A stretch of DNA of 64,000 bases, from NCBI GenBank assembly GCA_019244185.1, contig JAFATB010000006.1:1-64000 (forward strand), written 5' to 3'. Both the position numbers and the translations under genes were made by a program. The notes under the pieces are model-generated. The model searched no databases. It was not told the origin of the DNA and saw only the letters and a program-made list of their open reading frames with translations. Positions 15,501 through 57,583 of the stretch are shown one piece after another (position 1 is the first letter of the stretch; each line of letters opens with the position of its first letter). Source of the stretch: Acidobacteriota bacterium. GTDB lineage: Bacteria; Acidobacteriota; Thermoanaerobaculia; Gp7-AA8.

Positions 15501-15612
15501 GCAGATCGCTGACCGGCAGCAGCCGGTACGCCATCGCACCGAACAACAGGATTGCGATCATGACCAGCGTGGTCATGACGGGGCGGCGGATGAAAGGCGC
15601 GGAAAGGTTCAT
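12505..15612 (-). CDS. RND efflux permease (AcrB/MdtB/MdtC family)
   Basis: MNLSAPFIRRPV, LPNVDFPTI, GFVVDDAIVMLEN, KKNGIMMVDF and RFRPIMMTT motifs. Confidence 0.95.
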   Translation of the reverse strand: MNLSAPFIRRPVMTTLVMIAILLFGAMAYRLLPVSDLPNVDFPTINVNASLPGASPETMAASVATPLERQFSTIAGLDSMTSSSSLGQTSITLQFALSRPLDAAAQDVQAAIAAAQRSLPPNMPTPPSYNKVNPADQPVFYIALTSDTLPLYQLDEYAETQMGQRLSTVPGVAQVIVYGAQKYAVRIQLDPQQLATRGIGVDEVVTAVRNSNVNLPTGVMNGPYQAATITANGQLLKADDYRPITVAYRNGAPVRLEQLGRILDSVENDKTAAWFRDKRGVILAVQKQPGTNAVEVSNAIRKLLPRFRQELPASINLDIHRDRADSIRESVTDVKFTLMLTLFLVILVIFLFLRNVSATVIPSLALPMSLVGTFAVMYLFDYSLDNLSLMALTLSVGFVVDDAIVMLENIVRHMEQGEKPFEAAVKGSQEIGFTILSMTISLAAVFIPILFMGGILGRLFHEFAVTIGASILVSGFVSLTLTPMLSARFIRPHHGRHGRFYEMSERFFERMLAVYASGLRFVLRHKRATMLVSLAILIATGFLFVQVPKGFLPSEDQGQIYLQLEGPQGISYEDMVRHQLAVARIVQKEPSVAAFFSAVGIRGGAYNSGIISVRLVPRKERDISADELIAKLRPMVNAVPGVRVYLQNPPPIRLGGRSSQALYQYTLQGPNTDELYASASKMTDKMRTLPGFVDVASDLQIRNPQVSVAIDRDRAASYGLTANQIEDALFSAYATRQVSTMYAPTNSYQVIMEAAPQYQQDIGSLSLLYVRAASGELVPLSTFAKLLPSVGPLTVNHSGQTPSVTISFNLKPGVSLGDAVNQINGVARTTLPATISTSFQGTAQAFQSSMQGLGMLLIVAIAVIYMVLGVLYESFIHPLTILSALPFAGFGALLTLLVFHVDLSIYAFVGIIMLVGLVKKNGIMMVDFAVEAEKQGLEPERAIYDACLIRFRPIMMTTMAALMGTLPIALGLGAGAESRRPLGLAVVGGLLFSQTLTLYVTPVFYVYMDKLRSKRGKEESHVHMEAAEEEVLAPV

Positions 15613-16685: not shown

Positions 16686-18055
16686 CGATTCAACCTTCCG
16701 GTGTCGTGAGCGAGTTGTGCGAGCGAGAGGAACCAGTCGGCCCGCGACTGCACCTCTTCGGCGCGCGCGGTTTCGAGCGCGGACTGCGCGGTGAGCACGT
16801 CGACGATCGTGCCGACGCCCTCGCGGTAGCGCGCGCGGGCGACGTCCGCCGACTGCTGCGCGCTGTTGAGAAGATCGCGGCTCGTGGCCAGCCGCTGCCG
16901 CGCCGTGCGCAGCCCGTAGTAGCTGGTCCAGACGTCGAGCGAGACCTGCTGCGAGAGATCGCGCAGCTGCTCCCGCGCGAGCTCGGCCTCGAGCTCCGCC
17001 TGCCGCACGTCGTAGCGGTTCCGCCAGCCGGTGAAGAGCGGGAAGCTCAGCCCGACCGCGGCGGAGTACGGCGTCGAACGCTCGCCGCCGTTGCCGATGT
17101 TGAAACCGGTCGACGCCGACGTGACGACGCGCGGCAGAAAGCTCGAGCGGACCTCGCGGATGCGCGCGGATGCACGTTCGGCGAACGCGCGCGAGGCGGC
17201 GAGATCGGGACGCGCGCGCTGCGCCGCGTCGATGAGCACGTCGATGGCGTCGGAGACGTCGTTCGCCGGCACGTCGTTCGGCAGCTCGCCGACCTCGAAG
17301 CGCGTCGTCGGAGACACGCCCATCGCCGTCGCCAGCGCGCCTTCGATCGCGCGCAGGTTGCCTTCGATCGTGTCGTAGGTCAGCTGCGCCTGCGAGAGCG
17401 CGGTGCGCGCCTGCAGCACGTCGGCAATCGTGGCGACGCCCGCGTTGTGACGCGCTTCCGCGGCGTCGAGACTGGTCTTGCGCTCGGAGAGCGTCGCGCT
17501 CTGCGCGGCGAGCTGCGCCTTCGCGTCGAGGTACTGGTAATACGCCTGCTGCGTCTGCAGGATGACGTCCTGAATGGCCTGGTTGTGCAGGAAGTCGGAG
17601 GCAATGAGCGTCTGCCGCGCCTGCTCGACGCGCGCGTCGCGCCCGCCGAAGTCGAACAGCAGATACGTGAGCGCGAGCGACGGGCCGATCGACGTCTGCG
17701 AGCTCCCGCCCGCCGCCTTCACGCGCGCGACGCTCGCATCGAGATCGACTTCGGGAAGCCACGCCGCCTGCTCGCTGCCGACCGCCGCTTCCGCGGCGCG
17801 CGCGGTGAGCCACGCCTCACGCGTGCGCGGGTTGTTCTCGAGCGCGATGTCGAGGACGCGCGCGAGCGTGATCGGACCGGTCGAATCCGCCGCCGTCGCA
17901 ACAACCGTCGACGGCACCGCCGGGATCGCGACGTTCTGCGTCACGGTCGGCGTCCACGGCTTCGACGGCGCGTCGGACGTCTTCACGTCCGGCTGGGCCG
18001 TGCGGCACGCGGTGACGGCAAACAGCAGCGCGAAGAACGCGCAAATTCGTTTCAT
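16682..18055 (-). CDS. TolC-family outer membrane lipoprotein
   Basis: AVTAC lipobox; ALENNP, LFDFGGR and GVGTIVDVL OEP motifs. Confidence 0.9.
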   Translation of the reverse strand: MKRICAFFALLFAVTACRTAQPDVKTSDAPSKPWTPTVTQNVAIPAVPSTVVATAADSTGPITLARVLDIALENNPRTREAWLTARAAEAAVGSEQAAWLPEVDLDASVARVKAAGGSSQTSIGPSLALTYLLFDFGGRDARVEQARQTLIASDFLHNQAIQDVILQTQQAYYQYLDAKAQLAAQSATLSERKTSLDAAEARHNAGVATIADVLQARTALSQAQLTYDTIEGNLRAIEGALATAMGVSPTTRFEVGELPNDVPANDVSDAIDVLIDAAQRARPDLAASRAFAERASARIREVRSSFLPRVVTSASTGFNIGNGGERSTPYSAAVGLSFPLFTGWRNRYDVRQAELEAELAREQLRDLSQQVSLDVWTSYYGLRTARQRLATSRDLLNSAQQSADVARARYREGVGTIVDVLTAQSALETARAEEVQSRADWFLSLAQLAHDTGRLNR

Positions 18056-25834: not shown

Positions 25835-27424
25835 GTGAGCGTGAGCCTCATCGCGAGTGCACTGGCGAGCCGCGGCGCGAGCGTCCTCGCGAGCCTGCTC
25901 GCGAGCGCGAGCGCCAACGCGCTGCTCGCGGCGACGCTGAAGGCGACGCTCGCGTTCGCCGCGGCACTCGCGTTCGTGCGGCTCGCGACGCGCGCGTCTG
26001 CCGCGACGCGACACGCGATGCTCGCGGCCGCGCAGCTGGCGGCGCTGACGATGCCGCTCCTCGCGTATGTTGTCCCGCCGCTGACAGTGGCGTGGAGCGC
26101 GCCGCGCGCCGAGACGTTCGCGCTGCCCGCGCCGGCGTCGCAGACACCGGCATCAACCGCGAGCGCCGCACCCGCAGTCGCGCCGCAGCGGCGCGTGCCC
26201 GTGAACCCGCTCCTCGCATGCTGGCTCGCTGGCATCGCGATCGTCGCGACGGCGCGTCTGCCCTCGCTGCAGCGCGCCGCGCGCATCGCGCGCGGCGCGC
26301 CGGCGTGGGAGGCGGAGTGGGAGCCGGCGCAGACGGAACACCGCGGCCCGCGCGTCTACCTCACCGACGCCATCGACCAGCCGGTCACGCTCGGCTCGCG
26401 CATCCTCCTCCCCACCGCCGCCCTCGACTGGCATCCGGCGCAGCTGCGTGCGGTGCTGCTGCACGAGCGCGCGCACGTGGCGCGGCGCGACTCGCTCCTC
26501 GGCCTCGTCAGCGACTTCGCCTGCGCGGTCTACTGGTTCCATCCGCTCGCATGGCTCGTTGCACGACGGGCGCGGCTCGAGCGCGAACAGGCGTGCGATG
26601 AAGCGGTGCTCGCGCAGGGCGTGCGCCGCACCGACTACGCCGCCGCGCTCCTCGACATCGCGCGCAATGCCGCGCGCGCCGCGCACGGAATGGCGATGGC
26701 CGAACGCCCGCAGCTCGAGGTGCGCATCCGCGCCATCGTCGCTGGCGCGACGCCGCATCCGCGCCGCGGCGCACGCGCGGCCGTGGTGGTCGCCGCCGTC
26801 GCCGCCGCGCCGTTTCTCGCCGCGCTCACGCCGCTTGCCATCGCGCGTCCGTCCGCCGGCGAGCCCGATCTCCTCGGCGACGCGATCGCCTCGCCGCGCA
26901 GCGAACGCCTCGGCGCACCCGCGGTGAGCGTCGTCGCGAGCGGCCCCGACGCCGCGCTCATCGCCACTCTGCAGCAGTACGCCGCGCAGCCGCCGCGCGA
27001 CGAGACCGATCTCGTCGCCGACCGCGCGCGCTGGGCGCTCGGCCGCGTCCGCGACGGCGAGCTCGTACGCCCGATGCTCGACGCGCTCGACGATGCGGAC
27101 TGGCGCGTGCGCGCGTACGCCGCATGGACGCTCGCCATCGCCGGCGAGCGCCGCGCCACGCCCGCGCTCGTCACGCAGCTGCGCGATCCCGTCTGGCGCA
27201 TGCGCGCCATGGCCGCGTACGCGCTCGCGGAGCTCGCCGATCCCGCCGCGCACGACGCGATGCAACGGGCGCTCGCCGATCCGGCGTGGCAGGTGCGCAC
27301 GTGCGCCGTCCGCTATCTCGCGGCGCTCCACGATCCCGCCGACCGCGCCCTGCTCGACGCCATGCGCGCCGACCGCCACATCGCCGTCCGCACTGCCGCG
27401 GAGCAAGCCTTGAATCGCTCGTGA
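25835..27424 (+). CDS. M56 (BlaR1-like) metallopeptidase with C-terminal HEAT repeats
   Basis: LLHERAHV.R.D, YWFHPL.W and EREQACDE motifs; D..WRVRA.AA.AL HEAT repeats. Confidence 0.9.
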   Translation: MSVSLIASALASRGASVLASLLASASANALLAATLKATLAFAAALAFVRLATRASAATRHAMLAAAQLAALTMPLLAYVVPPLTVAWSAPRAETFALPAPASQTPASTASAAPAVAPQRRVPVNPLLACWLAGIAIVATARLPSLQRAARIARGAPAWEAEWEPAQTEHRGPRVYLTDAIDQPVTLGSRILLPTAALDWHPAQLRAVLLHERAHVARRDSLLGLVSDFACAVYWFHPLAWLVARRARLEREQACDEAVLAQGVRRTDYAAALLDIARNAARAAHGMAMAERPQLEVRIRAIVAGATPHPRRGARAAVVVAAVAAAPFLAALTPLAIARPSAGEPDLLGDAIASPRSERLGAPAVSVVASGPDAALIATLQQYAAQPPRDETDLVADRARWALGRVRDGELVRPMLDALDDADWRVRAYAAWTLAIAGERRATPALVTQLRDPVWRMRAMAAYALAELADPAAHDAMQRALADPAWQVRTCAVRYLAALHDPADRALLDAMRADRHIAVRTAAEQALNRS

Positions 27425-27441
27425 TGCTTTTCAGCCCGTCG

Positions 27442-27459
27442 ATGTCAAATTTTTAACAC
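27442..27459. promoter_or_regulatory. Putative BlaI-type operator (copy 2)
   Basis: atgtcaaatttttaacac is 15/18 identical to copy 1 and lies upstream of the aggag RBS of the serine hydrolase. Confidence 0.7.
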
Positions 27460-27474
27460 CACCAGGAGCCACGC

Positions 27475-28989
27475 ATGAAAGCTTTCGCCTGCAGCATCCT
27501 CATCGTCCTCACCGCCGCGACCGCGGCGTTCGCGCAAACACCCGCGTGGCCGGCCGAGCTCGACGCCTACATCGAGAAGGCGCGCACCGACTGGGAAGTG
27601 CCGGGGCTCTCCGTCACCGTCGTGCGCGACGGCAAGCTCCTCGTCGCGAAAGGCTACGGCGTGCGCACGCTCGGCCGGCCGGAGCGCGTCGACGAGAACA
27701 CGATGTTCGACATCGCGTCGGTCTCGAAATCGTTCACCGCCGCCGCCATCGCCACGCTCGTCGACGAAGGGAAGATGCACTGGGACGATCCGGTGCGGCG
27801 CTGGCTGCCGCAGGTCGAATTCTCCGATCCGTACCGCACCGCGAACGTCACCATCCGCGATCTCCTCTGCCACCGCGTCGGCGTCGAGCAGGGCAACTTC
27901 CTCTTCCGCTTCACCGGCTACACGACCGACGAAGTGCTGCGGCGCATGCGCTATCTCAAAGAGAAAGACGCCTTCCGCACGACGATGATCTACTCGAACG
28001 TCGGCTACACCGCCGCCGGCGAAGCAGCGGCCGCCGCCGCGGGCATGCCGTTCACCGAACTGCTGCGCACGCGTCTCCTCGAGCCGCTCGGCATGACCGC
28101 TTCGACGATCGGCGTCCCGCACACCGCGTCGCCGAATCACGCGTCGCCGCACGGCCCCGTCGACGGCATCCAGCGACCGATCGATCACACGAAAGCGCTG
28201 AACATCCTCCCCGCGGACGCGATCAACTCGACGCCGCTCGACATCGCGAAGTGGATGCTCTTCCAGCTCGGCGACGGCACCTGGAACGGCAAAACCCTCA
28301 TCTCCAAAGCATCGATGACCCAGATGCACGAGCCGCAGAACATCATCGCTACGACGCCCGACATGCGCGCGAACCGCGGCGTGCAGTTCTTCGCCGCGTA
28401 CGCGCTCGGCTGGCAGGTGATGGACTACCGCGGCCACAAGCTCATCTGGCACAGCGGCTCCGGCGACGGCATGCCGGTCTACATGGCGCTCCTCCCCGAC
28501 GAGCACATCGGCGTCATGGTGATGATCAACACCTGGAACGCGCCGGTGCTGCACGGCACGATCGCCGCGAAGATCTTCGACGTGCTGCTCGGTCTGCCGA
28601 GCACCGGCGGCGACACGGCGGCGGAAGCAGCCGCGTATCGCAAACGCACCGCGCAAGCCGACGCGGAACGCCGCGCGCTCGACACGCCGCCCGCGCCGAT
28701 CGCGAAGCCGTCGCGCCCGCTCGACGCCTACGCCGGCACGTACGTCGATCCGCTGTACGGCGAGATGCACGTGACGCTCGTGAACGGCGCGCTCGTGCTG
28801 CAGTTCGCGCGCGGCGAACGCGCCGATCTGAAGCCGTGGCAATACGACACGTTCCGGGTCGCGTGGCGCGATCGCGTGTACGAGGACTTCGACACCTTCG
28901 CCACGTTCTCGCTCGACGCGCACGGCACGCCGCACCGTTTCGACATGCAGCTCAACCGCGACAACGTCGAGGCGACGCGGTCGCAATAG
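27475..28989 (+). CDS. Secreted serine hydrolase, beta-lactamase/AmpC-like, with DUF3471-like C-terminal domain
   Basis: IASVSKSF (SxxK), YSN and HSG motifs; YAGTY.DPLYG C-terminal domain; signal peptide. Confidence 0.9.
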   Translation: MKAFACSILIVLTAATAAFAQTPAWPAELDAYIEKARTDWEVPGLSVTVVRDGKLLVAKGYGVRTLGRPERVDENTMFDIASVSKSFTAAAIATLVDEGKMHWDDPVRRWLPQVEFSDPYRTANVTIRDLLCHRVGVEQGNFLFRFTGYTTDEVLRRMRYLKEKDAFRTTMIYSNVGYTAAGEAAAAAAGMPFTELLRTRLLEPLGMTASTIGVPHTASPNHASPHGPVDGIQRPIDHTKALNILPADAINSTPLDIAKWMLFQLGDGTWNGKTLISKASMTQMHEPQNIIATTPDMRANRGVQFFAAYALGWQVMDYRGHKLIWHSGSGDGMPVYMALLPDEHIGVMVMINTWNAPVLHGTIAAKIFDVLLGLPSTGGDTAAEAAAYRKRTAQADAERRALDTPPAPIAKPSRPLDAYAGTYVDPLYGEMHVTLVNGALVLQFARGERADLKPWQYDTFRVAWRDRVYEDFDTFATFSLDAHGTPHRFDMQLNRDNVEATRSQ

Positions 28990-46457: not shown

Positions 46458-47201
46458 TCAAGCGCGCGAACGCAGCCACGCCTTCGCGCGCCACCACACG
46501 CGTGCGAGATCGTCGCGGCGGCGGGCGCCGGCGGTCGGAACGCCGGCGTCGCGGAGCCAGACCACGCGGTTCGCGTCGTCGACGTCGCGGAAGCGCTGCA
46601 CGACTTCGTCGGAGAACTGCGAGCGGTGGCAGGCGACGACGCGCACGAGATCGTTCCACGTCGCGCGCACGTCGACCGCTTCCGCGCGCGGATCGGCGCG
46701 CGTGAAGCGCAGCGGCGCGTGCAGCAGCTCGACGCGCGACTCGACGAGCGTCAGCGGAACCGGCAACGCGAGCCGTTGCACGAGCGTGCCGGTGGCGCGG
46801 TGATCGGCGTGCCACGTACAGCCGTGGTGGCGATTGAACGTCACGATGCGATCGGGGCGCACCTCGTCGACGAGCGCGCGGACGTGCGCGTGCAGCGCCC
46901 GCGTCCCGCCCGCGGCGTGCGACCACGCGCGGAGCACGTCTTCGGGCTCGTCGCCGCTGCCGTCCGGCAGGCGCGCGAAACGAACCTCGCCGCCGAAGAG
47001 CGTGGCCGCGGCGCGCATCTCGTCTTCGCGGATGCGCGCGACCTGCTCGGGATCGATGTTGCCGAGAAGGCCGCGTCCGCGCTCGCCGGAGGTGAGGACG
47101 AGGAAGTGCACGCGCGCGGAGGACTGCAGGACGAGGCGCGCCAGCCACGGCGCGACGAAGAGCTCATCGTCGGGATGGGCGCCGATCCAGAGCAGTTCCA
47201 T
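46458..47201 (-). CDS. PIG-L/LmbE family deacetylase
   Basis: AHPDDE, LTSGE.G, R..EM..A and HADH motifs. Confidence 0.9.
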   Translation of the reverse strand: MELLWIGAHPDDELFVAPWLARLVLQSSARVHFLVLTSGERGRGLLGNIDPEQVARIREDEMRAAATLFGGEVRFARLPDGSGDEPEDVLRAWSHAAGGTRALHAHVRALVDEVRPDRIVTFNRHHGCTWHADHRATGTLVQRLALPVPLTLVESRVELLHAPLRFTRADPRAEAVDVRATWNDLVRVVACHRSQFSDEVVQRFRDVDDANRVVWLRDAGVPTAGARRRDDLARVWWRAKAWLRSRA

Positions 47202-47210
47202 CGCGGCAGG

Positions 47211-48095
47211 TCAGCGGATGGTGGCGTTCACGTCGAGCGACGCCGCGACGCTCGAATCCTTCTTCAGCGTGATCTTGAGGGCTTCGTGAAAGGCGCCGGG
47301 CTTCGCGCGCGCGCCGTCGATGGTGATGGTCACGGACTGCTTGCCGTTCGGCGGCACGAGGTCGTTGTATTTATAAAAAAGACAGCGGCACGACGAGCGT
47401 GACAGCGCGATCGTCGCCGGAGCATCGCCGTGGTTCGTGACGACGAACTGCCGCGCGGTGCGCGTGCCTTTGCGCACGATGCCGTAGTCCTGCGATGCCG
47501 GCGTCACGGTGAGCACGTCGGGCGGCGAATTCGGCGTGGCGATCGTGTCGTCGACGGCGCTCGTGCCGCTGGAATCGCTCGCCGTCACCGACGTCGACGT
47601 CCGTTCCGCAACCGGCTGCTCGACGATCGTCGCGGGCGTCGTTTTCTTCTCCGAGCTCGCCCGCCAGATCAGCCAGCCGATGAGCGCGAGCACGACCACC
47701 GCCGCGATGAGGATGCCGACGACGCGCGTCGCCGAACCGCCCGTGTCCGGCGGCGGATCGTAGACGCCGACGCTGCCGGCGGGCGGCTCGGATTCGGGAG
47801 ACGTGGCAAGCGGGCGGAGGCCGGGCTCGGTCTTGAAGCGCGGCTGAGGATTCGCCGGTGGCGCGGCAACAGGCGCCGCCGCGGCGGTCCCGCCTTCGAG
47901 CTCGTCGAGCTTCACGAGCGCCGCGTCGAGGTCGCGGATGAGGCGCTGATATTCGGTGGCGAGATGCTCGGTGGGCGCGTCGGCGGTCATGTTGACCAGC
48001 GCCTCGCGATGGCGGCGGTAACGCTGCCGCAGCAGCTCGAGCTCGCGCGCGCGTTCGCCGCGAGTCGCATTGACGGTGCCGAAATCGTCCGACAT
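47211..48095 (-). CDS. Single-pass membrane protein with C-terminal DUF1573-like Ig domain
   Basis: One TM; DYG.V..G....QF.VTN.G..P.....SSCRC...VPPNG. Confidence 0.7.
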   Translation of the reverse strand: MSDDFGTVNATRGERARELELLRQRYRRHREALVNMTADAPTEHLATEYQRLIRDLDAALVKLDELEGGTAAAAPVAAPPANPQPRFKTEPGLRPLATSPESEPPAGSVGVYDPPPDTGGSATRVVGILIAAVVVLALIGWLIWRASSEKKTTPATIVEQPVAERTSTSVTASDSSGTSAVDDTIATPNSPPDVLTVTPASQDYGIVRKGTRTARQFVVTNHGDAPATIALSRSSCRCLFYKYNDLVPPNGKQSVTITIDGARAKPGAFHEALKITLKKDSSVAASLDVNATIR

Positions 48096-48727
48096 CAGCG
48101 TTGATCTTTACAAAAAACCAGCTCGGACACCAGACAACAAACCGACGCGATGCCCAGGCCCGCGGTCCAGCCGGCCACGACGTCGGACGCCCAGTGACGA
48201 TCGCGCACCAGCCGATTGATCCCCGCGCCGACCGGAATCACGACGATTCCCGCCAGCGCCGCAGGCGTCAGCAGCTTCTCGCGCACGAGCACGTACGCCG
48301 GCACGAGCAGCTCCGCCGTCGCCGCCATCGCGTGGTCGCTCGGGAACGACGGCTTCGGCCTGCCGTCCTTCGACGTCGGCGCGTACTGCAGCGGCAGCAT
48401 GCGCTCGCACGTCATGCCCGCGGCCTTCACCAGCGCCGGTCCGAGCACGACCGGCAGCCAGGCGCGCGCGCCGCGCCGACACGTCCCGAGCGCGACGAGA
48501 CCGTTCATCGTGAGAAGGAACTCCGTCGCGCTGATGGCTTTGAAGAAGAGCGCGACCGGCGATTCCGGATCGGGATCGCGCGCGAGCACTTCCTCGCGCA
48601 CTTCCTGATCCGTCTCCGCCAGTTCGCGGTTGGCGACCGCGCGGAACATGCGCGCGAGCAGCGCCGACGCACCGAGGGCGGTGAGCGAAAAGAGAGCGAT
48701 ACGCGCGGCAGACTTGCGGCGATCCAT
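48095..48727 (-). CDS. PAP2-family phosphatase-like membrane protein
   Basis: SFPSDH and R...RHWASDV.AG motifs; motif 1 (KxxxxxxRP) is degenerate. Confidence 0.75.
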   Translation of the reverse strand: MDRRKSAARIALFSLTALGASALLARMFRAVANRELAETDQEVREEVLARDPDPESPVALFFKAISATEFLLTMNGLVALGTCRRGARAWLPVVLGPALVKAAGMTCERMLPLQYAPTSKDGRPKPSFPSDHAMAATAELLVPAYVLVREKLLTPAALAGIVVIPVGAGINRLVRDRHWASDVVAGWTAGLGIASVCCLVSELVFCKDQR

Positions 48728-48893
48728 CGCTCGTCCTCCGAGCAAGCGCAATGCCGCAAACCCACCAGAAACCGCACAAGGCGTGCTACACTGCCGTCAG
48801 TCCATCAGACCATTATTGTTTCCATGTTTAGAGACCGCCGGCGGGAGCTCCAGTTCCGCGTGCGCCGTCGTACGCCGGCAAGGGAGACCAATC

Positions 48894-49718
48894 GTGACCA
48901 CGCCTCAATCGCGCATCGCCGACCACGTCCACTCCGCCCTCGACGTCGTCCCGCAAACCCCGATCATCGAGCCGCTGCGCCGCGCCTTCGCCGCGCATGA
49001 AGGCGCGCTGGCCGACATCGAGAACGCGTTCCGCACCTTCACGTCGGCCGCCCCGACTCCCGAGCGCGCACGCTACTTCTTCCACAGCTGGAGCCTCACC
49101 AACCACAGCGCGATGTGCGTCTCCGGCATCGGCAACCGCATCACGCTGCGCCTCCTCGACGAGCGCAACGGCATCGACAAGCCGCGCCTCACCTCCGCCC
49201 TCCTCGCCCTTCACCGCATCTCCGACGAGGACCTCGGCGCCCTCGGCGGCACGCTGCACGCCGATCTGTTCTACGAGATGGCCGACCTCTTCTGCGACGG
49301 CGACGCGTGGATGCGCCGCGGCTTCGCACTCGACAGCGCCCGCGCGTTCAAAGACTACAAGAACCGCACGGGCCTGCGCATGCCGGACCTGATGTTCGGA
49401 CTGCTCTCGACCGTCGCGCACGAGGTCTACACGCACGGCGAAGTGGAGTTCATCCTGCCGCTCTTCCGCGGCCTCGTGCAGCAACACTTCGACATCGATG
49501 AGAAACAGCAGCGCCGCCGCCTAGCCTGGATCAGCGTCCACTGCGGCCCGACCGAGCGCGAGCACTTCCGCCACGCGGTCGAAGCGATCGATCATTACTG
49601 CGCCGCCACGCACACGGACCTCGGCGCCTACGAGCTCGAACAGCTCTTCGGCGAGTACATCGAGAACAAGGCCGCCGTGATGCGCGATCTCTCGCGGCTG
49701 ATGACGACGCTCAACTAG
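48894..49718 (+). CDS. Heme-oxygenase-like diiron oxidase (HDO superfamily)-like protein
   Basis: All-helical pattern with DEDLG.....HADLF, HEVYTH and VHCGPTEREH candidate metal ligands; gggag RBS before a GTG start. Confidence 0.65.
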   Translation: MTTPQSRIADHVHSALDVVPQTPIIEPLRRAFAAHEGALADIENAFRTFTSAAPTPERARYFFHSWSLTNHSAMCVSGIGNRITLRLLDERNGIDKPRLTSALLALHRISDEDLGALGGTLHADLFYEMADLFCDGDAWMRRGFALDSARAFKDYKNRTGLRMPDLMFGLLSTVAHEVYTHGEVEFILPLFRGLVQQHFDIDEKQQRRRLAWISVHCGPTEREHFRHAVEAIDHYCAATHTDLGAYELEQLFGEYIENKAAVMRDLSRLMTTLN

Positions 49719-49726
49719 CCGCCCGC

Positions 49727-50950
49727 ATGCGTCACCTGCGCGAGCTCGGCACGACGGCGGACGCGTTCCGCGCGCATCGCACGGAGTTCCTCGCCGCGAT
49801 GGCGCGCGCCGCCGGCCGCGCCGTCCCGTGGGGCGATGAGCTGTTCAATCCGTATCCGTTCGCGCTCGACGAGCCGTACGTCGAGCGCCTGATGCGCTTC
49901 GGCCGCGCGGTGCACGCGGGCATCCACGCCGTCGTGCAGAACTTCGCGCGCGACGAGCGCATCCGCGCGCGCTACGCGCTCGACCCGCGCCTCTTGCCGA
50001 TCCTCGAGCGCGCCGCACACGAGCCGTACACGATCGGGATGTTCCGCCCCGATTTCGTGCTCGACGAGGACGGCGACTTCCGCGTCTGCGAGATCAACGC
50101 GCGCTTCTCCGCGAACGGCTACGCGATCAACGACATCATCGACGGCACGCTCGCCGCGCTCACCTATCTTCCGCCGAACGTGCACCGCGTCCCCGGGATG
50201 TCGACGATCCGCGAAACGATGACGCGCGCCTTCCGCGACGAACGCCCCGTCGCGATCGTCCTCCGCAGCGAAAGCGGTAGCGAGATTCACCTCCTGCTCT
50301 CGGAACTCGACACGTACACGATCGCACCCGCGGACCTCGCGCACGACACGCGCAATCCGCACTACGTCCTCGAGCTCGATCGCCTCGAACTGCTCGACCT
50401 CGCGCCGCATGTGCTCGAGCGCATCATCCGCACCGGCTCCCGCAACGACGTGCGCACGCTGATCCTCGTCCACGACAAACGCCTGCTCTCGATCCTCTCC
50501 GATCCCGCGATCATGCGCGATCACGTCGACGCCGATGACTGCGCGCTCCTCGCCCGACACATCATCCCCACCCGCCCCGCCTCCGATCCCGAAGCCCGCG
50601 CCGCCGCACTCGACACGCCCGAGCACTGGGTTCTCAAACCCAGCAGCGGCGGCCGCGGCGTCGATGTCTGGATCGGCTCCGAAACGCCGCGCTCTCAATG
50701 GGAGTCGCGCCTCCACACGCACGATCACACCGACACGCTGCAACGCTTCATCCCCCAACGCCGCTTCACGATCCGCCACCTCGACGGCGACACGCTCCGC
50801 GACAGCGAGATGCACGTGGTCGGCCTCCTCCCCTGTTTCGAAGACCACGTGTTCGGCCCCGGCATCTTCCGCGCCGGCACCGGCAGCGTGATCAACGTCC
50901 ACCAACAACGCGGCGAGGTGCTGCCGTGTGTTGTGGATACCAAGGGCTGA
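49727..50950 (+). CDS. ATP-grasp ligase (glutathione/glutathionylspermidine synthetase-like fold)
   Basis: FRPDF, VCEINAR, HDKR, WVLKP.SGGRG and LQRFI motifs. Confidence 0.8.
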   Translation: MRHLRELGTTADAFRAHRTEFLAAMARAAGRAVPWGDELFNPYPFALDEPYVERLMRFGRAVHAGIHAVVQNFARDERIRARYALDPRLLPILERAAHEPYTIGMFRPDFVLDEDGDFRVCEINARFSANGYAINDIIDGTLAALTYLPPNVHRVPGMSTIRETMTRAFRDERPVAIVLRSESGSEIHLLLSELDTYTIAPADLAHDTRNPHYVLELDRLELLDLAPHVLERIIRTGSRNDVRTLILVHDKRLLSILSDPAIMRDHVDADDCALLARHIIPTRPASDPEARAAALDTPEHWVLKPSSGGRGVDVWIGSETPRSQWESRLHTHDHTDTLQRFIPQRRFTIRHLDGDTLRDSEMHVVGLLPCFEDHVFGPGIFRAGTGSVINVHQQRGEVLPCVVDTKG

Positions 50951-51125
50951 CGAGAGGCCTCCGGCGGGCCGGCACGGCCGGCAGCGCTAAGGGCCTAGCC
51001 TAGACGCACGTGCGGTCGCGGTTAACGTTGTTGACGGCAGCCGCACGTGAGTACTGGCTAAGCCCTTAGCGCTGCCGGCCGCGCCGGCCCGCCTGAGGCC
51101 CTTCGTCAGCCCCTGGTATCCACAA
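50931..51125. repeat. 195-bp palindromic MITE/REPIN-like element, copy 1
   Basis: Terminal 23-mers ttgtggataccaagggctgacga / tcgtcagcccctggtatccacaa are complementary with 1 mismatch; pairing continues inward. Confidence 0.88.
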
Positions 51126-52284
51126 TCCGGCGAATCTTGCGCGACGTCGGCGAACGTTCGAGGTCTTCGCTGCGCATGGGGCGGATGTGAAGGAGGAAGT
51201 CGGCGCCGGTGGCGCCGAGGAGCTCGTGGACGCGCGATTCGAGCGCCTGCTGGCGGGTGGCGTCCCAGTTCGCTGGAGGCACGACGCGGATTTCGAGGCG
51301 GTCGCGGAGCGACTCCGCGTCGGACGAGAGGTGCAGCTGATAGTCCGTCATCTCCTCGAACACTGGGGCGACGGCGGGGAGGTTGAAGTAACTGCCGTCG
51401 AGCGTGAACGAATTCGACTCGCGTCCGACGAACTGGAACGTCGCGCGCGTTTCGGATTTTGCGATCCAGCGCACGCGGTCGCCCATGCGGTAGCGGAGCA
51501 CGGGGATGCGGCGGCGGATGAGATTCGTCACCACCATGTCGCCCACGCCGTCGGCGTCAGGATTGAGGATCTCGATGTGCAGCATGCGCGGGTCGTAGTG
51601 GAAGACGTCGGGCGCGTCGTTCGCGCCGCGGTACGCCCACACGCCAGTTTCCGCGGAGCCGTATGCGGAGACGAAGACGTCGGTTTGGAAGGCTTCCGTG
51701 AAGAGCTTGCGCTGCGCGGGGCGGACCGCTTCGCCGGCGGCGAGGATGCGTTTGAGCGGCAAACGCTGGTTCGTGTCGACGAGATGGCGCGCGAGCTGCG
51801 CGAGGCGCCCCGGCTCGCCCATGATCATGTCCGCGTGGAACGCGCGCGCGACCTCGACGGCGACCGCGTCGGTGGCGGTCGATTCCAGCGGCAATGACGT
51901 CGCGCCGATCTGCTCGCAGTAGTCGGTGAAGATCTCCATCGAGCGATACATCATGCGGCCCGCGAACAGATTGAGCGCGATCGCATCCGGCGGAATCACG
52001 CCCGCTTCCGCGAGCATCGGCGCGAAGCGTCTGCGCTGCTCGTGGTTGTCTTCCGTGTCGACGGGGAAGCAGAGATACGACCGCGTGCCGCTGCCGCCCG
52101 AGGGGCTCAGATAGAGGCCGTGCAGGTTCGCGGGATTCGTGTAGAAGGTCTGCAGCGCCGCGTCGAGCGTCTGCTTGTCAAGGAGCGGAACGTCTTCGAA
52201 CTTCGTCGCGGAGAGGTCACGTCCGGCGTACAGCGGATGCACGCGTGCCAGGGAAAGGATTTGTTCGGGGGTCACGCCTTCCAT
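51106..52284 (-). CDS. PaaK/phenylacetate-CoA-ligase-like adenylate-forming enzyme
   Basis: SPSGGSG P-loop, AGE, YGSAETG, TNL.R...P.LRYRMGD and GR motifs, with C-terminal SRK. Confidence 0.85.
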   Translation of the reverse strand: MEGVTPEQILSLARVHPLYAGRDLSATKFEDVPLLDKQTLDAALQTFYTNPANLHGLYLSPSGGSGTRSYLCFPVDTEDNHEQRRRFAPMLAEAGVIPPDAIALNLFAGRMMYRSMEIFTDYCEQIGATSLPLESTATDAVAVEVARAFHADMIMGEPGRLAQLARHLVDTNQRLPLKRILAAGEAVRPAQRKLFTEAFQTDVFVSAYGSAETGVWAYRGANDAPDVFHYDPRMLHIEILNPDADGVGDMVVTNLIRRRIPVLRYRMGDRVRWIAKSETRATFQFVGRESNSFTLDGSYFNLPAVAPVFEEMTDYQLHLSSDAESLRDRLEIRVVPPANWDATRQQALESRVHELLGATGADFLLHIRPMRSEDLERSPTSRKIRRIVDTRG

Positions 52285-52296
52285 AATGCCACATAA

Positions 52297-53319
52297 CTAT
52301 CGTTGCGCGGCGCGTTTCAGGCCTGAATCCACGATTTCCTGAATCAATTCCGGATACGTTTTTCCCGATTTTTTCGCCGCCGACGCGAACTCCTCGGATC
52401 TCGCGATGTCGGGATTCGGATTCGCCTCGAGGAAGTAGAGCTGCTCGTCCTTGCCGAGGCGATAGTCGATGCGGCTGAAGCCGTCGAGATCGAGGATGCG
52501 CGCGATGGCTTTCGTGTTGTCGATGACGTGCGCGCGCAACGCGTCGGAGAGCTCCGCCGGCACCTGATAGATGCTGTGCTTTCGCTGATACGCGCGGTTG
52601 TGTTTCGCGTTCGCGGTGGCAATGCCGTACGCGCCGCGCGGCAGCTCGCGGAACTGCAGCTCCCACACGGGCAAGACTTCCACGCGCTGATTGCCGAGGA
52701 TGCCGACGTTCAGCTCGCGGCCATCGATGAACTCCTCCGCGATTGCATCGGAGCCATTGCGGCGGTGGATGAACGCCACGCGCTCGCGGAGCTGCGCGTC
52801 GGTGTCGACGACGGACTTTTGCGAGATGCCGAGCGAGGCTTCCTGCACGAGGCTCTTCACGATCAGCGGAAACGGGAGCTCGCGCGGACGGACGACGCGT
52901 TGGTTGCGAGGAAAGACGGCGAAGCGCGGCACGCGGATGCCGTGATACGCGAGGAGCTTCTTCGACATCGCCTTGTCGCGCGCGAGCATGAGACCGCGCG
53001 GACGGCAGCCGGTGTACGGCATCTGCATCAGCTCGAGGTACGCGACGACGTTCCAATCGAGCTCCTGCCGTCCGAGAAACTCTTCCAGCAGGTTCCAGAC
53101 GATGTGCGGGTGCCAGTCGTCGATGAGCGCACGGAGCGGATCGAGTGAGTCGGAGACCGCGACCACGCGCGTCTCGTGGCCGAGCTCGCGCAGCGTCGAC
53201 ACGACGTCGTATTCGGTCTTGCAGTCGTACCACTGTTGTTCGCTGAGACCGTCGAGCGAGTCGGGCGGCACGAGCGACGGGTGCACGAGGACGGCGACGC
53301 GCAGCTTCTTCCGCGTCAT
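52297..53319 (-). CDS. D-Ala-D-Ala ligase-like ATP-grasp protein
   Basis: PYTG, DKA.SK, FPLIVK, ASLGI, EEFIDGRE, RIDYR and LEANPNP motifs. Confidence 0.88.
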   Translation of the reverse strand: MTRKKLRVAVLVHPSLVPPDSLDGLSEQQWYDCKTEYDVVSTLRELGHETRVVAVSDSLDPLRALIDDWHPHIVWNLLEEFLGRQELDWNVVAYLELMQMPYTGCRPRGLMLARDKAMSKKLLAYHGIRVPRFAVFPRNQRVVRPRELPFPLIVKSLVQEASLGISQKSVVDTDAQLRERVAFIHRRNGSDAIAEEFIDGRELNVGILGNQRVEVLPVWELQFRELPRGAYGIATANAKHNRAYQRKHSIYQVPAELSDALRAHVIDNTKAIARILDLDGFSRIDYRLGKDEQLYFLEANPNPDIARSEEFASAAKKSGKTYPELIQEIVDSGLKRAAQR

Positions 53320-54341
53320 AGCGCGAACGTGTTGCGCCGGCGGTAGTGCACGTCCATGGTCGTGACGGTGAGCAGGATCGCGAACTCCATCTTCAGGCGG
53401 CTTTCCGGGCCGGCCGCGCGCAGTTTCAATTCGCGGCTTCGGCCGATGAGATCGTGAAAGACCTGCTCGCGAGTGTACTGAAACTCCCCCGTGAAGTTCG
53501 ACACGAGCCCGCGGATCTCCGCGCGGTTGCGGCGCAGAAAACGGGACGCGAGCTCGTGCTGCCGGTCGCGCGGATCGTCGGAGAAGAGTCGTTTGAGGTC
53601 GCCGTCCCACGTCGTCGGGAAGCTGACGTCGTACTGGCTCTGCTTCTTCTCGTAGTACTCACGCAGCGTCATGTCGAGCGTGCCGATCGCCTCGGTCTGC
53701 ACCTTCTTGCGGCGGCGCGGCTTCCGATCGCGCAGCTCGCGGAGCAGCGCGTCGACGAACTCGAGCTTCTCGAGCGCGGGCCAGTCGAAGTACTGCTTCT
53801 GCCACGTCGCCCGTCGCGCGCCGAGGACGACCGCGAACGTTTCCGCGAAATCCTCGTGCGGATGCGCCTGTGCGTAGTAGAGCCGCAGGTGCTGCACGAA
53901 GCGCCGGCTCGCGGGATTGGGGCGGTACTGCTTCGGATACCGCGTGGTCCATTTGCCGAAGAGCGCGCGGACGCGTGCGTCGCGCCCGAGGACGAAGGCG
54001 TTGTCGAGCACGTGCCCCGACTCGTGGCGCAGGATCTTCATCAGTTCGACCTTCGTCCCGCCTTCGACATCGCGCATCTTTTTGCGCTCGAGCTGCATGA
54101 GCCGCGGATGCGCGAGATAGAACGGGATGGCGATGCCGGTCGCGCCGCGCGGGACGAACCATTGCGTCGAGAGCCACGCGTACGGCCGAATGGCGAGATG
54201 CCGCCGCGCCAGCTCGCGATGCAGTTTCTCGATCGCGGGCTCGAGCCACGTGCCTTCGATGCGCAGTCCGAGCTCGCGCAGCCGCACGTCGAGCAGTTCC
54301 TCCTCGCCGAGGGTCTCCCACGCAAAGCGAGGCGCCTCCAT
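53316..54341 (-). CDS. Putative zinc-binding metallopeptidase
   Basis: RHESGH (HExxH) and YAQAHPHEDFAETF; stop overlaps the start of the Ddl-like gene. Confidence 0.85.
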   Translation of the reverse strand: MEAPRFAWETLGEEELLDVRLRELGLRIEGTWLEPAIEKLHRELARRHLAIRPYAWLSTQWFVPRGATGIAIPFYLAHPRLMQLERKKMRDVEGGTKVELMKILRHESGHVLDNAFVLGRDARVRALFGKWTTRYPKQYRPNPASRRFVQHLRLYYAQAHPHEDFAETFAVVLGARRATWQKQYFDWPALEKLEFVDALLRELRDRKPRRRKKVQTEAIGTLDMTLREYYEKKQSQYDVSFPTTWDGDLKRLFSDDPRDRQHELASRFLRRNRAEIRGLVSNFTGEFQYTREQVFHDLIGRSRELKLRAAGPESRLKMEFAILLTVTTMDVHYRRRNTFAL

Positions 54342-54370
54342 CCAGCCCGAACAGTTCCAAACCCTTGCCA

Positions 54371-54502
54371 GCCGGCCCGGCCGGCTGCGCTAAGGGCCGA
54401 GCCTATTCGCACGTGCGGCTGCACTGAACGTCATTGAGTGCAGCCGCACGTGCGGATAGGCTATGCCCTAAGCGCCGGCGGCCGCGCCGCCCCGCCGGAG
54501 GC
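54371..54502. repeat. Palindromic element copy 2 (core lacking the outer arms)
   Basis: gccggc.cggccggc.gcgctaagggcc.agccta..cgcacgtgcgg...gcagccgcacgtg...ggcta.gccct.agcgc aligns with ~50968-51099. Confidence 0.85.
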
Positions 54503-54943
54503 GCTCGCGGTCAGGCTCTTGAACGTAAACGCGAACTCCGTCGCCCCATGCGCCTCGAGATGCGCGAGCCGCTCCTTCGCTTCATCGATGCTCGGGATGT
54601 GACCCGCGGGAACCCACCAGAGCGCGACGGACGCGCCGGCGAACTGGTCGAACCATGAGCGGCGGTCGCGGAGCAGTTCCGCATGGGCGGTGCGGTAGAC
54701 GTACTGCTTCAGCGACTCGATGTCCTTCCATACCGACAGATTGAAGAGGATGCGCTCGTCGTCGTAAGGGCGGAGATACGTCGCATTCCCCTCGCCGGTC
54801 TGGAGGCGCCAGACGAAGCCGGGGCTGCCGTCGGCGAGCGCGTTGATCTCCTCGAGACGCGCGACGAAGCCGGCCATCACCGGCGAGTCGAGCGGCTCCT
54901 TCATGCGCGCGATGTTCACCTGGGCAATGTGCAGCTCGCTCAT
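54461..54943 (-). CDS. DUF3291 domain protein
   Basis: HIAQVNIA, SPGFVWRL, NLSVW, LWWVP.GH.P and AFTF motifs. Confidence 0.9.
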   Translation of the reverse strand: MSELHIAQVNIARMKEPLDSPVMAGFVARLEEINALADGSPGFVWRLQTGEGNATYLRPYDDERILFNLSVWKDIESLKQYVYRTAHAELLRDRRSWFDQFAGASVALWWVPAGHIPSIDEAKERLAHLEAHGATEFAFTFKSLTASASGGAARPPALRA

Positions 54944-54964
54944 GAATGTATCGTAGCCGCCCAG

Positions 54965-57583
54965 TTAGATCGGTAGCCAGTACGAGAACTTCACCAGGAA
55001 GACATCCTGCGACGGCGCGCCGGGGAGCGCGGAGAGATCGCGGCGGAAGCGGAAGTCGCCGAACGGCACGACGTCGGAACGGTTCTCGTTCCAGACGACG
55101 AAGAGCGCGGAGCCGGGGCGGAACTCCCACCGCACGACGGCGCTCCCGCGCACGCTGCGGAAATTGAAATCGGGATCGCCGAAATCGTACGTCTGCGATG
55201 CGAAGCGCGCGGTGTACGTCGCGTCCGCGGCGTCGTGCAGCGTGTCGACGGGCGAGTAGCGCAGCTCGCGCGCCTCGTCGAGTTGTTTAAAGGAGTGATA
55301 GTCGCCGCTGGCGATGAACGGCTGCACGTACAGCTGCATCGACAGGCGCGCGGTGGCCGTCCAATCGGCGCGGATGCCGACGTCGAGCGTGCGCTGGTCG
55401 AGCGTCGCGAAGAGATACCGGTTGCCGAACGTCGGCGTGTACGACGCGTCGGGAACCGTGGCGACGTACTGCGCGGCATCGCGGCTGCGGTTGAAACCCG
55501 GATCGATGCGCAGGCGCAGCGACGGCGCGGGGCGGTATTGCAGGATGAGGCTCGTGCGGCGGAAGTAGCCGCCGAGTTCATCTTCCGAATCCTCGATGTA
55601 CGGCTCGACCCAGAACTTCTTGCGCGAGTCGTTGCCGGCGCCGACGTAGACGTCGAACTGCTTCGGCCGCACCGCCGCGGGACCGCCGCGGGTGAGCTGC
55701 GCGTCGATGGCGCGCCAGTCGTAGCCGCCGCCGCCATACACGTACCAGTAATTCTTGTGTTCGACGTACCAGTTTCCGTAGAAGCCGTTCGCCGTGTTGT
55801 CGCTGTCGAAGTTCCAGTTCTGGTATTTGCCGATCCACCAGCTCCGCTCGCGCGTGTACTTGCCGACGTCGGTGTTCGTGTACTGCATCACCGCGTGCGT
55901 GGCGATCGTGTCGGTGCGCGGCAGGTAGCCGACGTCGTTGAGCTCGAAGCCGGGCGAGAGCGCCATCACCTGCAGGTTCGGGCGCCAGTGGCCGGTCTGC
56001 TTGCCGATCATCGCGCGTCCGCCGAATCCGGCGAGCGAGGTGCGGTTCGGATCGAGCTCGACGTGACTCGCATCGGGGCGCTGGTAGTAGCGCGCGGGAC
56101 TCTCCTGCGCCAGCGTGATCGCTTCCTTCGAGCCTTCGATGAGCGTCGTGCCGGTGAGCCATTCGAAGAGCCACGACTTGTTCGCGAAGCGCGTGTAGCC
56201 GTCGACGCCGCCGAAGTACGCGTTCGAGCGCAGCGTCGGCTCGAGGTTGTCGGTGAGCCTGCGGTTGACGGACGTGAAGAGGAAGCCGGCACGCGAGTCG
56301 CGGCCGTACTCGCGCGTGGCGCGCGCGACGAGGTAGTTCGTCATCGGCTCGACGGTCGCCTTGCCGATCTGCGCGCCGGTGCGGAACCACGCCTGTTCGC
56401 GGTCGGTGAGCGCCTCGATCGCGCCGACGGTCCAGCCTTTGCCGAGCTTGCCGGTGACCTTCGCGGCGCCGAGGATCGTGGTTTCGCCGGGAGCGTCCGT
56501 CCAGTCGGCGGCGATCGAGCCTTGCGGCGCACGGCCGATGCGGCGCGAGTAGAAGAACGTCGGGAAGTACGTGTTGAAGCCCCAGCGGCTGTTCGCCGGA
56601 CCTTCGCCGAAGTTGAAGATGTTCCCGCCCTCGGTGAAGAACGGCCGCTTCTCCGGGAAGAACGTCTCGAACTGGCTGAGGTTGAGCACCGCGGGATCGA
56701 CCTCGACCTGGCCGAAGTCGGGATTGATCGTGCCCGTGAGCGTGAGGCTGGACGAGAGGCCGTACTTCACGTCGACGCCCGCGTCCATCCGCTGCGAGCT
56801 CGGCGTCACGAACGGATTGTCGTTGCGGCTGGCGAGGTCTTCGCGCGCGACGCCGTACGGCACGACCTCGAACGCGCGCCGCGGCTTAATCCCTTCGATG
56901 CCGGTGAGATCGGCGAAGCGCGAGACGTAGCCGTTGTCGGTTTTCTTCGAGAACACGAGGCGCGAGCCCTCGTGCAGGCGCGCGTTCCAGCGGCCGATGT
57001 TGAAGCCCCAGACGTACGACGGCTGCTCGGGAAAGCGGAGCTGCGAGTACGGGATGCGGATCTCCGCGGTCCACCCTTTCGCGCTCGTCTTCGTCGCCGA
57101 CTCCCACACCGCGTCCCAGCTCGTGTCGTCGTAGATGTCGTTGTACAGGATCATGTCCGCCTGCACGTTCGACGGATTGATCATGAACTTCGCGCCGCTC
57201 AGGCGGTCGTGCTGCGAGTCGATGCCGATGGTGAGGTAGTCGGCGGATTCGAGATCGCTGTCGCGGCGCGCGAGCAGCGGCGTCGGCGGCGCGTCGTCTT
57301 CCATCACCGCGCCGAAGTAGATCGCGTCGTCGTCGTAGACGACCTTCACGCGCGTCTGCCGCGTGGCCGGCTCGCCCTCGTGCGGATCGCGCTGCGTGAA
57401 GCCGGTGATCTCCGGCGCGTTCTGCCACGCGGGATCGGAGAGATCGCCGTCGAGCACCGGCGCCTTCTCCGCGCGCACGGCGCGATACGACGGCCGCGGC
57501 TTCGGCGCGTCCTCCGCGAAAACATTCAGCGCGAGAACCGTGTTGCAGAGTACGAGGCAGAGAACGCGGAGCGATGGTCTCAT
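54965..57583 (-). CDS. CBM9-like + DUF5916 outer-membrane protein
   Basis: LDGDL.D..W, W.AEIRIP.SQL, NPDFGQVE.D and EKRPFF.EG motifs; ends VKFSYWLPI; signal peptide. Confidence 0.88.
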   Translation of the reverse strand: MRPSLRVLCLVLCNTVLALNVFAEDAPKPRPSYRAVRAEKAPVLDGDLSDPAWQNAPEITGFTQRDPHEGEPATRQTRVKVVYDDDAIYFGAVMEDDAPPTPLLARRDSDLESADYLTIGIDSQHDRLSGAKFMINPSNVQADMILYNDIYDDTSWDAVWESATKTSAKGWTAEIRIPYSQLRFPEQPSYVWGFNIGRWNARLHEGSRLVFSKKTDNGYVSRFADLTGIEGIKPRRAFEVVPYGVAREDLASRNDNPFVTPSSQRMDAGVDVKYGLSSSLTLTGTINPDFGQVEVDPAVLNLSQFETFFPEKRPFFTEGGNIFNFGEGPANSRWGFNTYFPTFFYSRRIGRAPQGSIAADWTDAPGETTILGAAKVTGKLGKGWTVGAIEALTDREQAWFRTGAQIGKATVEPMTNYLVARATREYGRDSRAGFLFTSVNRRLTDNLEPTLRSNAYFGGVDGYTRFANKSWLFEWLTGTTLIEGSKEAITLAQESPARYYQRPDASHVELDPNRTSLAGFGGRAMIGKQTGHWRPNLQVMALSPGFELNDVGYLPRTDTIATHAVMQYTNTDVGKYTRERSWWIGKYQNWNFDSDNTANGFYGNWYVEHKNYWYVYGGGGYDWRAIDAQLTRGGPAAVRPKQFDVYVGAGNDSRKKFWVEPYIEDSEDELGGYFRRTSLILQYRPAPSLRLRIDPGFNRSRDAAQYVATVPDASYTPTFGNRYLFATLDQRTLDVGIRADWTATARLSMQLYVQPFIASGDYHSFKQLDEARELRYSPVDTLHDAADATYTARFASQTYDFGDPDFNFRSVRGSAVVRWEFRPGSALFVVWNENRSDVVPFGDFRFRRDLSALPGAPSQDVFLVKFSYWLPI

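Follow-up and report, generated by a model that had tools for sequence, protein, structure and literature searches.

The Locus

The window analyzed here, by which we mean the whole stretch of 64,000 nucleotides (positions 1 to 64,000 of contig JAFATB010000006.1 in the Acidobacteriota bacterium assembly GCA_019244185.1), contains three adjacent genes, here called A, B, and C, that we infer to form a small-molecule pathway. They had been picked out before by a model that saw only the letters and their open reading frames (ORFs), and the three ORFs are as that sequence-only reading described them: the coordinates and translations agree, A lies 8 nt upstream of B, and C converges on the pair. In plain terms, the genes are as follows:

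48894-49718, plus strand: gene A, 274 amino acids from a GTG start; member of a small, unnamed family with a predicted heme-oxygenase-like fold, a putative diiron oxidase resembling the heme-oxygenase-like diiron oxidases (HDOs)
49727-50950, plus strand: gene B, 407 amino acids; Cp1B/AnkG-type ATP-grasp ligase with a glutathione-synthetase-like fold
51106-52284, minus strand: gene C, 392 amino acids; PaaK-like adenylate-forming (ANL) enzyme, a proposed amide bond synthetase or acyl-CoA ligase

The 8 nt separate the stop codon of A from the start codon of B, and a 155-nt gap separates the convergent genes B and C. The GTG start of A is supported both by its homologues, 39 of which begin at about the same residue when aligned, and by translated similarity to a related locus (L002), which begins at 48876.

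Gene B

Neither Pfam nor NCBIfam has a model that matched B, and a phmmer search of the PDB gave a sole match, 9cjn ("Ligase Cp1B"; E 4e-14, in two stretches). A profile built from 26 sequences of the B family raised Cp1B to 6.5e-42, with the next PDB match at 0.051. The AlphaFold2 model of B (pLDDT 93.2) likewise had 9cjn as its top Foldseek match (E 1.1e-22, TM 0.81, 21% identity), followed by glutathione and homoglutathione synthetases, glutathionylspermidine synthetase (GspS), and YgiC/YjfC; homoglutathione synthetase and YgiC/YjfC are also given as the nearest structural homologues of Cp1B itself (PMC12568646). B therefore has both the three-domain glutathione-synthetase-like ATP-grasp fold and the sequence homology over the ATP-grasp core that mark the Cp1B/AnkG type.

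According to the same source, Cp1B is the ATP-grasp enzyme that couples trans-epoxysuccinate to an L-amino acid in the biosynthesis of the protease inhibitor E-64, and changing R139, D141, E163, or N165 to alanine abolished or attenuated its activity (PMC12568646). These four positions align with R107, D109, E122, and N124 of B, where the numbering relative to the deposited Cp1B chain uses an offset of 15 inferred from matching spacing. Of these, R107, D109, and E122 do not vary among the 26 family sequences; N124 varies, and Gly is found there in the family consensus. The residues critical to Cp1B activity are thus present in B, which is homologous to Aspergillus Cp1B and is, as its earlier description as atypical had it, an atypical, Cp1B-type ATP-grasp ligase.

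The sequence-only reading had also singled out motifs in B (RPDF...EINARF..NG and NDVRTLILVHDKR) and in C (ARVHPLY, GGSG, and YRS), all of which are present, and had likened them to uncharacterized families found in fungi as well, which would have made the pairing of the genes cross-kingdom. The fungal resemblance is real for B through its Aspergillus homologue, but "uncharacterized" no longer fits, as Cp1B was characterized in 2025 as the E-64 pseudodipeptide ligase (PMC12568646), and the cross-kingdom idea survives for B only, as no fungal relative of A turned up.

Gene A

A had no match in Pfam, in NCBIfam, or among PDB sequences, the last searched both with phmmer and with a family profile. 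When 40 members of the A family were run against Pfam at E<=10, only scattered chance matches appeared, and none of them reached E 0.01. The family is also small and isolated: among 1.84 billion representative sequences, HMMER found 161 matches at E<=1e-3, 116 at 1e-10, and 62 at 1e-30. The AlphaFold model of A (from a 40-sequence alignment; pLDDT 94.2, pTM 0.91) is all-helical, and Foldseek placed UndA at the top (E 2.9e-4), followed by a TenA-annotated UndA homologue, PolF, CADD, and BesC. Further fold-match figures were 17.1 for PqqC, 16.9 for PolF, 16.6 for BesC, 16.4 for FlcD, 14.3 for SznF, and ~14 for heme oxygenase-1. As modeled, A has the all-helical heme-oxygenase-like fold of the HDO superfamily and is closest to the known diiron HDOs; the family is one of HDO-like proteins that no Pfam or NCBIfam model captures.

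Invariant residues among 40 close members include D111, E112, D113, H122, H176, E177, H181, E183, E185, H216, E221, and H224. A wider alignment was made of A and 22 distant relatives, namely the 25-29% identical Pseudomonas/Burkholderia paralogue described below, fusion domains, and low-scoring representatives; 16 of these 23 sequences keep all of E112, H122, E177, E183, H216, E221, and H224, whereas H176, H181, and E185 are specific to the core A group. The conserved His/carboxylate set resembles the three-His/three-carboxylate pattern of HDOs. In UndA we take the metal ligands to be E101, H104, E159, H194, D198, and H201; an hhalign comparison of A with five UndA orthologues was not significant (6.4% probability), and its local match pairs H216 with UndA H194. 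Known HDOs (UndA, HrmI, CADD, PolF, BesC, FlcD, and SznF) have no detectable sequence relation to A. They differ from the A family in that the latter has an extra conserved Glu, its core group has in addition H176, H181, and E185, and the last A motif has H-x4-E spacing around a proline. Of the earlier proposal for A, then, the fold was borne out by the model; for the iron ligands, a conserved set from which a metal site may be predicted is what stands.

A-like domains are also found fused to a DegT/DnrJ/EryC1 aminotransferase, to FCD (a GntR-type ligand-binding domain), and to TIR plus FCD (among P0145, P0190, P0195, P0205, and P0214); the seven candidate ligands are intact in every one of these fusion proteins. 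Two other long A-like proteins, P0198 and P0239, have no Pfam domain, and P0239 lacks H224. P0145, in which a DegT/DnrJ/EryC1 sugar aminotransferase is fused to an A domain (E 1.4e-98), is a single sequence present on 2 contigs. The 80 metagenome loci retrieved for its context matched the DegT half only, with A, B, and C in none of them, and a search with its A domain of proteins of 368-1173 amino acids returned only P0145 itself.

Gene C

Against AMP-binding PF00501, C scored 22.2 bits, under the 29.9 cut-off, and the NCBIfam models for DVU_1553-type, PaaK, BagE/FevW, and FlxY ligases were all far below their cut-offs (25-30 bits against 646-700 for the PaaK equivalog models). As all curated models fell short, the name phenylacetate-CoA ligase was rejected for C. 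A profile of the C family nevertheless matched PaaK structures in the PDB at 2e-21 to 2.8e-10, among them 9s3l (a 401-residue "phenylacetate-CoA ligase"; 2e-21) and PaaK 4r1l (1.1e-14); AjiA1, a CoA-independent ligase, was also matched (1.8e-9). S62, G64, S65, E212, D269, and the C-terminal K383 are invariant in 24 sequences, and we take them to be the named ANL motifs, including the P-loop residues and the C-terminal catalytic lysine. The core motifs of the PaaK-like ANL clade, that lysine among them, are hence found in C. From the profile matches and the invariant residues, C is a short PaaK-like ANL enzyme, much as first described, and because its P-loop residues, E212, D269, and K383 are invariant, it should adenylate. 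The acceptor may be CoA or an amine. Language-model neighbors of C were all bacterial PaaK-like clusters, and the matches listed in a sequence search with C (20 proteins) were almost all close relatives. A cluster with a DdaG_C domain was found at rank 17 among the language-model neighbors; it is noted as a lead only.

Linkage of A, B, and C across Bacteria

With A alone as the query, 80 loci were fetched from one-genome-per-species contigs, and the neighbors were scored by tblastn. B lies directly downstream of A in 58 of the 80 loci, and both B and C are present in 55. In 54, A, B, and C follow one another on the same strand, and a family 2 glycosyltransferase gene (GT2) lies within 4 kb of the end of A; in the loci examined, this gene is between B and C (order A-B-GT2-C). 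The GT2 product matched generic models only, all below cut-offs. The loci come, by record titles, from Bacteroidota, Alpha-, Beta-, and Gammaproteobacteria, Myxococcota, Vulcanimicrobiota, and Thermoanaerobaculia, and carriers include Flavobacterium, Pedobacter, Mucilaginibacter, Fluviicola, Nitrospirillum, Sphingomonas, Chromobacterium, Lysobacteraceae, and metagenome-assembled genomes (MAGs) of Archangiaceae and Vulcanimicrobiota. The grouping of A, B, and C is far beyond chance; the sequence-only reading had hung on the three genes co-occurring elsewhere, and they do.

Loci with B but without C were two contigs that end just past B (L001 and L003) and one locus (L012) with B and a weak GT2 match. 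Neither B nor C is present in 22 of the 80 loci, the A orthologues of which are 43-46% identical to A of the window. Seventeen of these loci are from Pseudomonas/Burkholderia, where A follows an MFS transporter gene; four are second copies in Nitrospirillum, and one, in Kordiimonas, has A and GT2 alone.

The Pseudomonas/Burkholderia loci have a content of their own. In 14 of the 17 (L020, L047, L055-L058, L061, L065, L069, L071-L073, L076, and L078), an aminotransferase gene (class I/II) and a second A-like paralogue (25-29% identical) lie within a few kb. In L020 and L065, the two examined, a gene for a fumarase-C-like lyase then follows; L020 also has a gene of the phosphoenolpyruvate (PEP)-mutase family, and L065 an ATP-grasp gene. 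With its two HDO-like proteins, this seems to be a separate, as yet undescribed cluster.

The Genes in Their Own Lineage

Next to C, and around the gap between B and C, the window has four further features:

50948-51110, no strand: palindromic repeat element that fills the gap between B and C; one long hairpin
52297-53319, minus strand: Ddl-like ATP-grasp ligase, 340 amino acids from an ATG at 53319; Dala_Dala_lig_C at 1.1e-25
53316-54341, minus strand: putative zinc metallopeptidase of the Peptidase_Mx family, first gene of the minus-strand operon; PF15887 at 3.3e-10
54371-54505, no strand: the palindromic repeat again, in a more diverged copy that lies upstream of the peptidase gene; 81% identity to the copy at 50948-51110

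C is the last gene of a tight minus-strand operon that begins with the peptidase and continues with the Ddl-like ligase: the likely ATG of the Ddl-like gene (53319) overlaps the peptidase stop codon as ATGA, and C starts 12 nt past the stop of the Ddl-like gene on the same strand. The Ddl-like protein matched D-Ala-D-Ala ligase models at 7e-38 but stayed below their cut-offs; as this was so for all curated models, the name D-Ala-D-Ala ligase was rejected for it.

Homologues ~80% identical occur on MAGs labeled Thermoanaerobaculia. The related locus L002 shares with the window a block of exactly 48875-54329, i.e., A, B, the inverted C, the Ddl-like gene, and the peptidase gene, and nothing on either side of it; GT2 is also lacking in L002, which keeps A, B, and C. 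Across 301 sampled genomes of the phylum, A was found in one, the window's own, and the only strong match to B was in that same genome, two others being weak and partial (E 1.6e-7 and 4.1e-6). This distribution makes A, B, and C look as if they had been acquired together and inserted beside a two-gene module, peptidase and Ddl-like ligase, that was there before. The peptidase is present in 64 of the 301 genomes (a count that includes the unpublished genome G024), and a second copy is on contig 4 of the window's own genome. Of 19 other loci examined (L082-L100), 17 have the Ddl-like gene next after the peptidase gene; in none of these 19 was C found beside the pair within the ~0.5 kb of flank available.

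Elsewhere, some of the A-B-GT2-C operons have a gene added after C. In the Nitrospirillum group (L006, L008, L014, L016, L022, and L029; Nitrospirillum and Azospirillum sp. B4), it is an extra ATP-grasp gene with a weak match to Ins134_P3_kin, and in one Pedobacter operon (L066), it encodes an S41 peptidase. An extra ligase or peptidase after C echoes the Ddl-like ligase and peptidase that lie next to C in the window.

The gap between B and C folds into a single hairpin (minimum free energy -156.2 kcal/mol; z -16.9 against shuffles), the arms of which, 50931-51026 and 51030-51125, are 85% complementary. The repeat is ~150 bp and occurs at ~40 genome sites (82 matches over both strands), a number that may truly be higher, as only 40 of 123 candidates were scored. 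Two copies bracket the operon of C, the Ddl-like gene, and the peptidase gene. L002 has no copy between B and C and a spacing there of at most ~36 nt, so that the repeat reached the gap once the gene order was already in place. The copy at 50948-51110 may serve as a two-way terminator.

Signals and Other Genes in the Window

A scan of 47500-55500 against Rfam gave only two sub-threshold, chance-level matches and no riboswitch or other RNA upstream of the genes; one of the two, to "mir-233" at 54400-54462, sits on the second repeat copy. Pattern scans predicted no promoters and six terminator-like sites, against 3.5 +/- 2.1 expected, with none in the gap between B and C. Upstream of A and divergent from it, a tight minus-strand run at 46458-48751 encodes a PIG-L-family deacetylase, a DUF1573 protein, and a PAP2 phosphatase; since L002 and the window do not have this run in common, it probably has nothing to do with the cluster. 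Farther away, on the plus strand at 25835-28989, a BlaR1-type M56 peptidase with HEAT repeats adjoins a serine beta-lactamase-family protein with DUF3471, and efflux systems (RND, MFS, OEP, and HlyD) lie across 8147-18055.

Proposed Pathway and Alternatives

We consider it reasonably likely that A, B, and C are the core of a pathway, independent of nonribosomal peptide synthetases (NRPSs), to a small metabolite of the pseudopeptide type, in which an HDO-type oxidase works with two ATP-dependent amide-forming enzymes. In such a pathway, A, using a dinuclear iron site and O2, would oxidize a free small carboxylic or amino acid. B would then activate a carboxylate as the acyl phosphate and, in the manner of Cp1B, link it to an amino acid through the latter's amine, and C would adenylate the carboxylate of the B product and join it to an amine or, less likely, convert it to a CoA thioester. 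In most lineages, a sugar would be attached by the GT2 whose gene separates B from C; here, the peptidase/Ddl-like pair may add and trim a further residue, or the two may be unrelated neighbors. A would thereby take the place that a 2-oxoglutarate oxygenase has in the E-64-like logic of fungi. Because A occurs without B and C in 22 of the 80 loci, it probably acts first, on a free metabolite.

Several points weigh against this proposal. The metal site of A is a prediction from conserved residues, as the alignment to UndA was not significant, and the FCD or TIR fusions of some distant A-like domains would suit a sensor no less than an enzyme. C may be no more than an ordinary acyl-CoA ligase, and in the window, it is transcribed with the peptidase/Ddl-like pair and not with A and B. 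Membership of that pair in the pathway is doubtful, as many genomes of the phylum have it but not A, B, or C (64 of 301 against one). The window has no operon-type GT2, although this is a conserved partner in most lineages, and a Pfam scan of the window ORFs (n=49) found no reductase partner, transporter, or regulator in the conserved block.

The order of steps could also be that of mangotoxin biosynthesis, in which case B, C, and possibly the Ddl-like ligase would build a peptide or pseudopeptide, A would oxidize a side chain, and the metallopeptidase would trim a residue and release the active compound. This would have precedent in that MboA is described as acting only on a tripeptide made by two ATP-grasp ligases (PMC13185094), and the final mangotoxin is reported to be a dipeptide even though the intermediate oxidized is a tripeptide (PMC13725569); the window block, too, has two ATP-grasp ligases and a peptidase. 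We think it unlikely because the A orthologues (43-46% identical) in loci that have neither B nor C, as is the case for 22 of the 80, cannot need a product of B or C; moreover, the peptidase/Ddl-like pair occurs across the phylum as a module that does not depend on A and B, and the Pfam scan found no MboB-like reductase in the block. The operon may instead modify a sugar and not make a free peptide-like product, acylating, for example, an amino sugar that GT2 moves to a glycan, a lipid, or a small acceptor. The place of GT2, between B and C where examined and within 4 kb of A in 54 of the 80 loci, points that way, as do the Kordiimonas locus with A and GT2 alone and the fusion of a sugar aminotransferase to an A domain in P0145. 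However, the window and L002 keep A, B, and C without GT2, the fusion is a single sequence while a DegT gene is present in none of the 80 loci nor in the window, the GT2 matches are generic and below cut-offs, and the characterized relative of B uses small acids and amino acids; we thus regard a route to a glycoconjugate as quite unlikely. These two alternatives and the proposed pseudopeptide pathway can be separated only by experiment.

Finally, there may be no common pathway here at all: C would serve the peptidase/Ddl-like operon or be an ordinary aryl- or acyl-CoA ligase, A would be non-oxidative (a TenA-like hydrolase or a ligand-binding domain), and the adjacency of A and B would be an accident of insertion. 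That is very unlikely given that C follows A and B in 55 of the 80 loci and in several phyla, that the block of A, B, C, and the peptidase/Ddl-like pair is kept between the window and L002 while the flanks differ, and that the best fold matches of A are metal-dependent HDOs, its candidate ligands being the most conserved residues of the family.

The pseudopeptide proposal has a more specific version, in which A would be a non-homologous stand-in for the Fe/2-oxoglutarate epoxidase of E-64 biosynthesis and would turn a C4 dicarboxylate or related metabolite into an electrophilic acid, from which B and C would make a covalent enzyme inhibitor, glycosylated in most lineages. It is hinted at by B, as a homologue of Cp1B, and by the genes near A in Pseudomonas/Burkholderia (fumarase-like, aminotransferase, and PEP-mutase-like); we hold this version to be speculative and rather improbable. 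If it is true, there is a widespread, unrecognized bacterial counterpart of E-64 made with new HDO chemistry.

Comparison with Known Systems

The mangotoxin mbo operon of Pseudomonas syringae encodes the HDO MboA, with a diiron site of three His and three carboxylates, the reductase MboB, the ATP-grasp ligases MboC and MboD, and the deiminase MboE (PMC13185094). The likeness is that the gene of an unannotated HDO accompanies those of free-standing ATP-grasp ligases, by which a short peptide is made. Set against the Mbo proteins by their description, the present block differs in having no MboB-type reductase or deiminase, in that B is of the Cp1B/glutathione-synthetase-like class, and in the presence of an ANL enzyme. 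The pairing of an HDO with an ATP-grasp ligase is itself of a kind already known, as at least 25 types of biosynthetic gene cluster are reported to combine the two (PMC13185094) and the legend of Extended Data Fig. 2 places Cp1B-like proteins in "a few bacteria" (PMC12568646).

What appears to be new is this HDO-like family and the fact that its genes share a conserved operon with those for a Cp1B-type ligase, GT2, and a PaaK-like ligase. No paper on this combination was found in the open full-text literature, where the supplements of PMC12568646 and PMC13185094 may already show the operon. More and more unusual oxidative reactions are being traced to HDOs, and Cp1B-type ligases were lately shown to be of use as biocatalysts; the finding joins both, the bacterial homologues of Cp1B being encoded in a four-gene operon (A, B, GT2, and C) that is conserved over several phyla. 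Since Pedobacter, Flavobacterium, Chromobacterium, and Nitrospirillum are culturable carriers, the product and the new reaction can be tested directly by heterologous expression.

In the dapdiamide pathway, the ANL ligase DdaG, the ATP-grasp ligase DdaF, and an Fe/2-oxoglutarate epoxidase yield a bacterial pseudotripeptide. It resembles the proposed pathway in its single ANL amide bond synthetase, its single ATP-grasp ligase, and its oxidative tailoring on a C4 diacid unit; it differs in the ligase order and in the oxidase family. Homology between B and DdaF was not seen, Cp1B being the only PDB sequence match of B.

Another comparison is with the E-64 cassette, represented by cp1/cp2 of Aspergillus flavus/oryzae and mfa of Microcoleus and consisting of Cp1A, Cp1B, and Cp1D (Liu et al., Nat Chem Biol 2025, PMC12568646). 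As described there, an oxygenase supplies the unusual acid, the ATP-grasp ligase acts next, and an ANL amide bond synthetase acts last: Cp1B converts a carboxylate that is not an amino acid into the acyl phosphate, which it links to an L-amino acid through the amine of the latter, and the fungal ANL enzyme, after adenylating the resulting C-terminus, links that to an amine (PMC12568646). Several differences are evident. The oxidase here has a predicted heme-oxygenase-like fold and is not an Fe(II)/2-oxoglutarate oxygenase, a domain that Pfam detected neither in the conserved block nor elsewhere among the 49 window ORFs scanned; there is no pyridoxal-phosphate-dependent decarboxylase; most bacterial versions add GT2; and B, at 407 amino acids, is shorter than the deposited Cp1B chain of 517 residues, to which it is 21% identical. 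Because it lacks an Fe/2-oxoglutarate epoxidase, the A-B-C block is not to be filed as an E-64 cluster, though it may work like one: each combines an oxidase, an ATP-grasp ligase, and an enzyme of the ANL family in a three-gene logic that does without NRPSs, and B is a true homologue of Cp1B in which the tested catalytic residues of the fungal enzyme are aligned.

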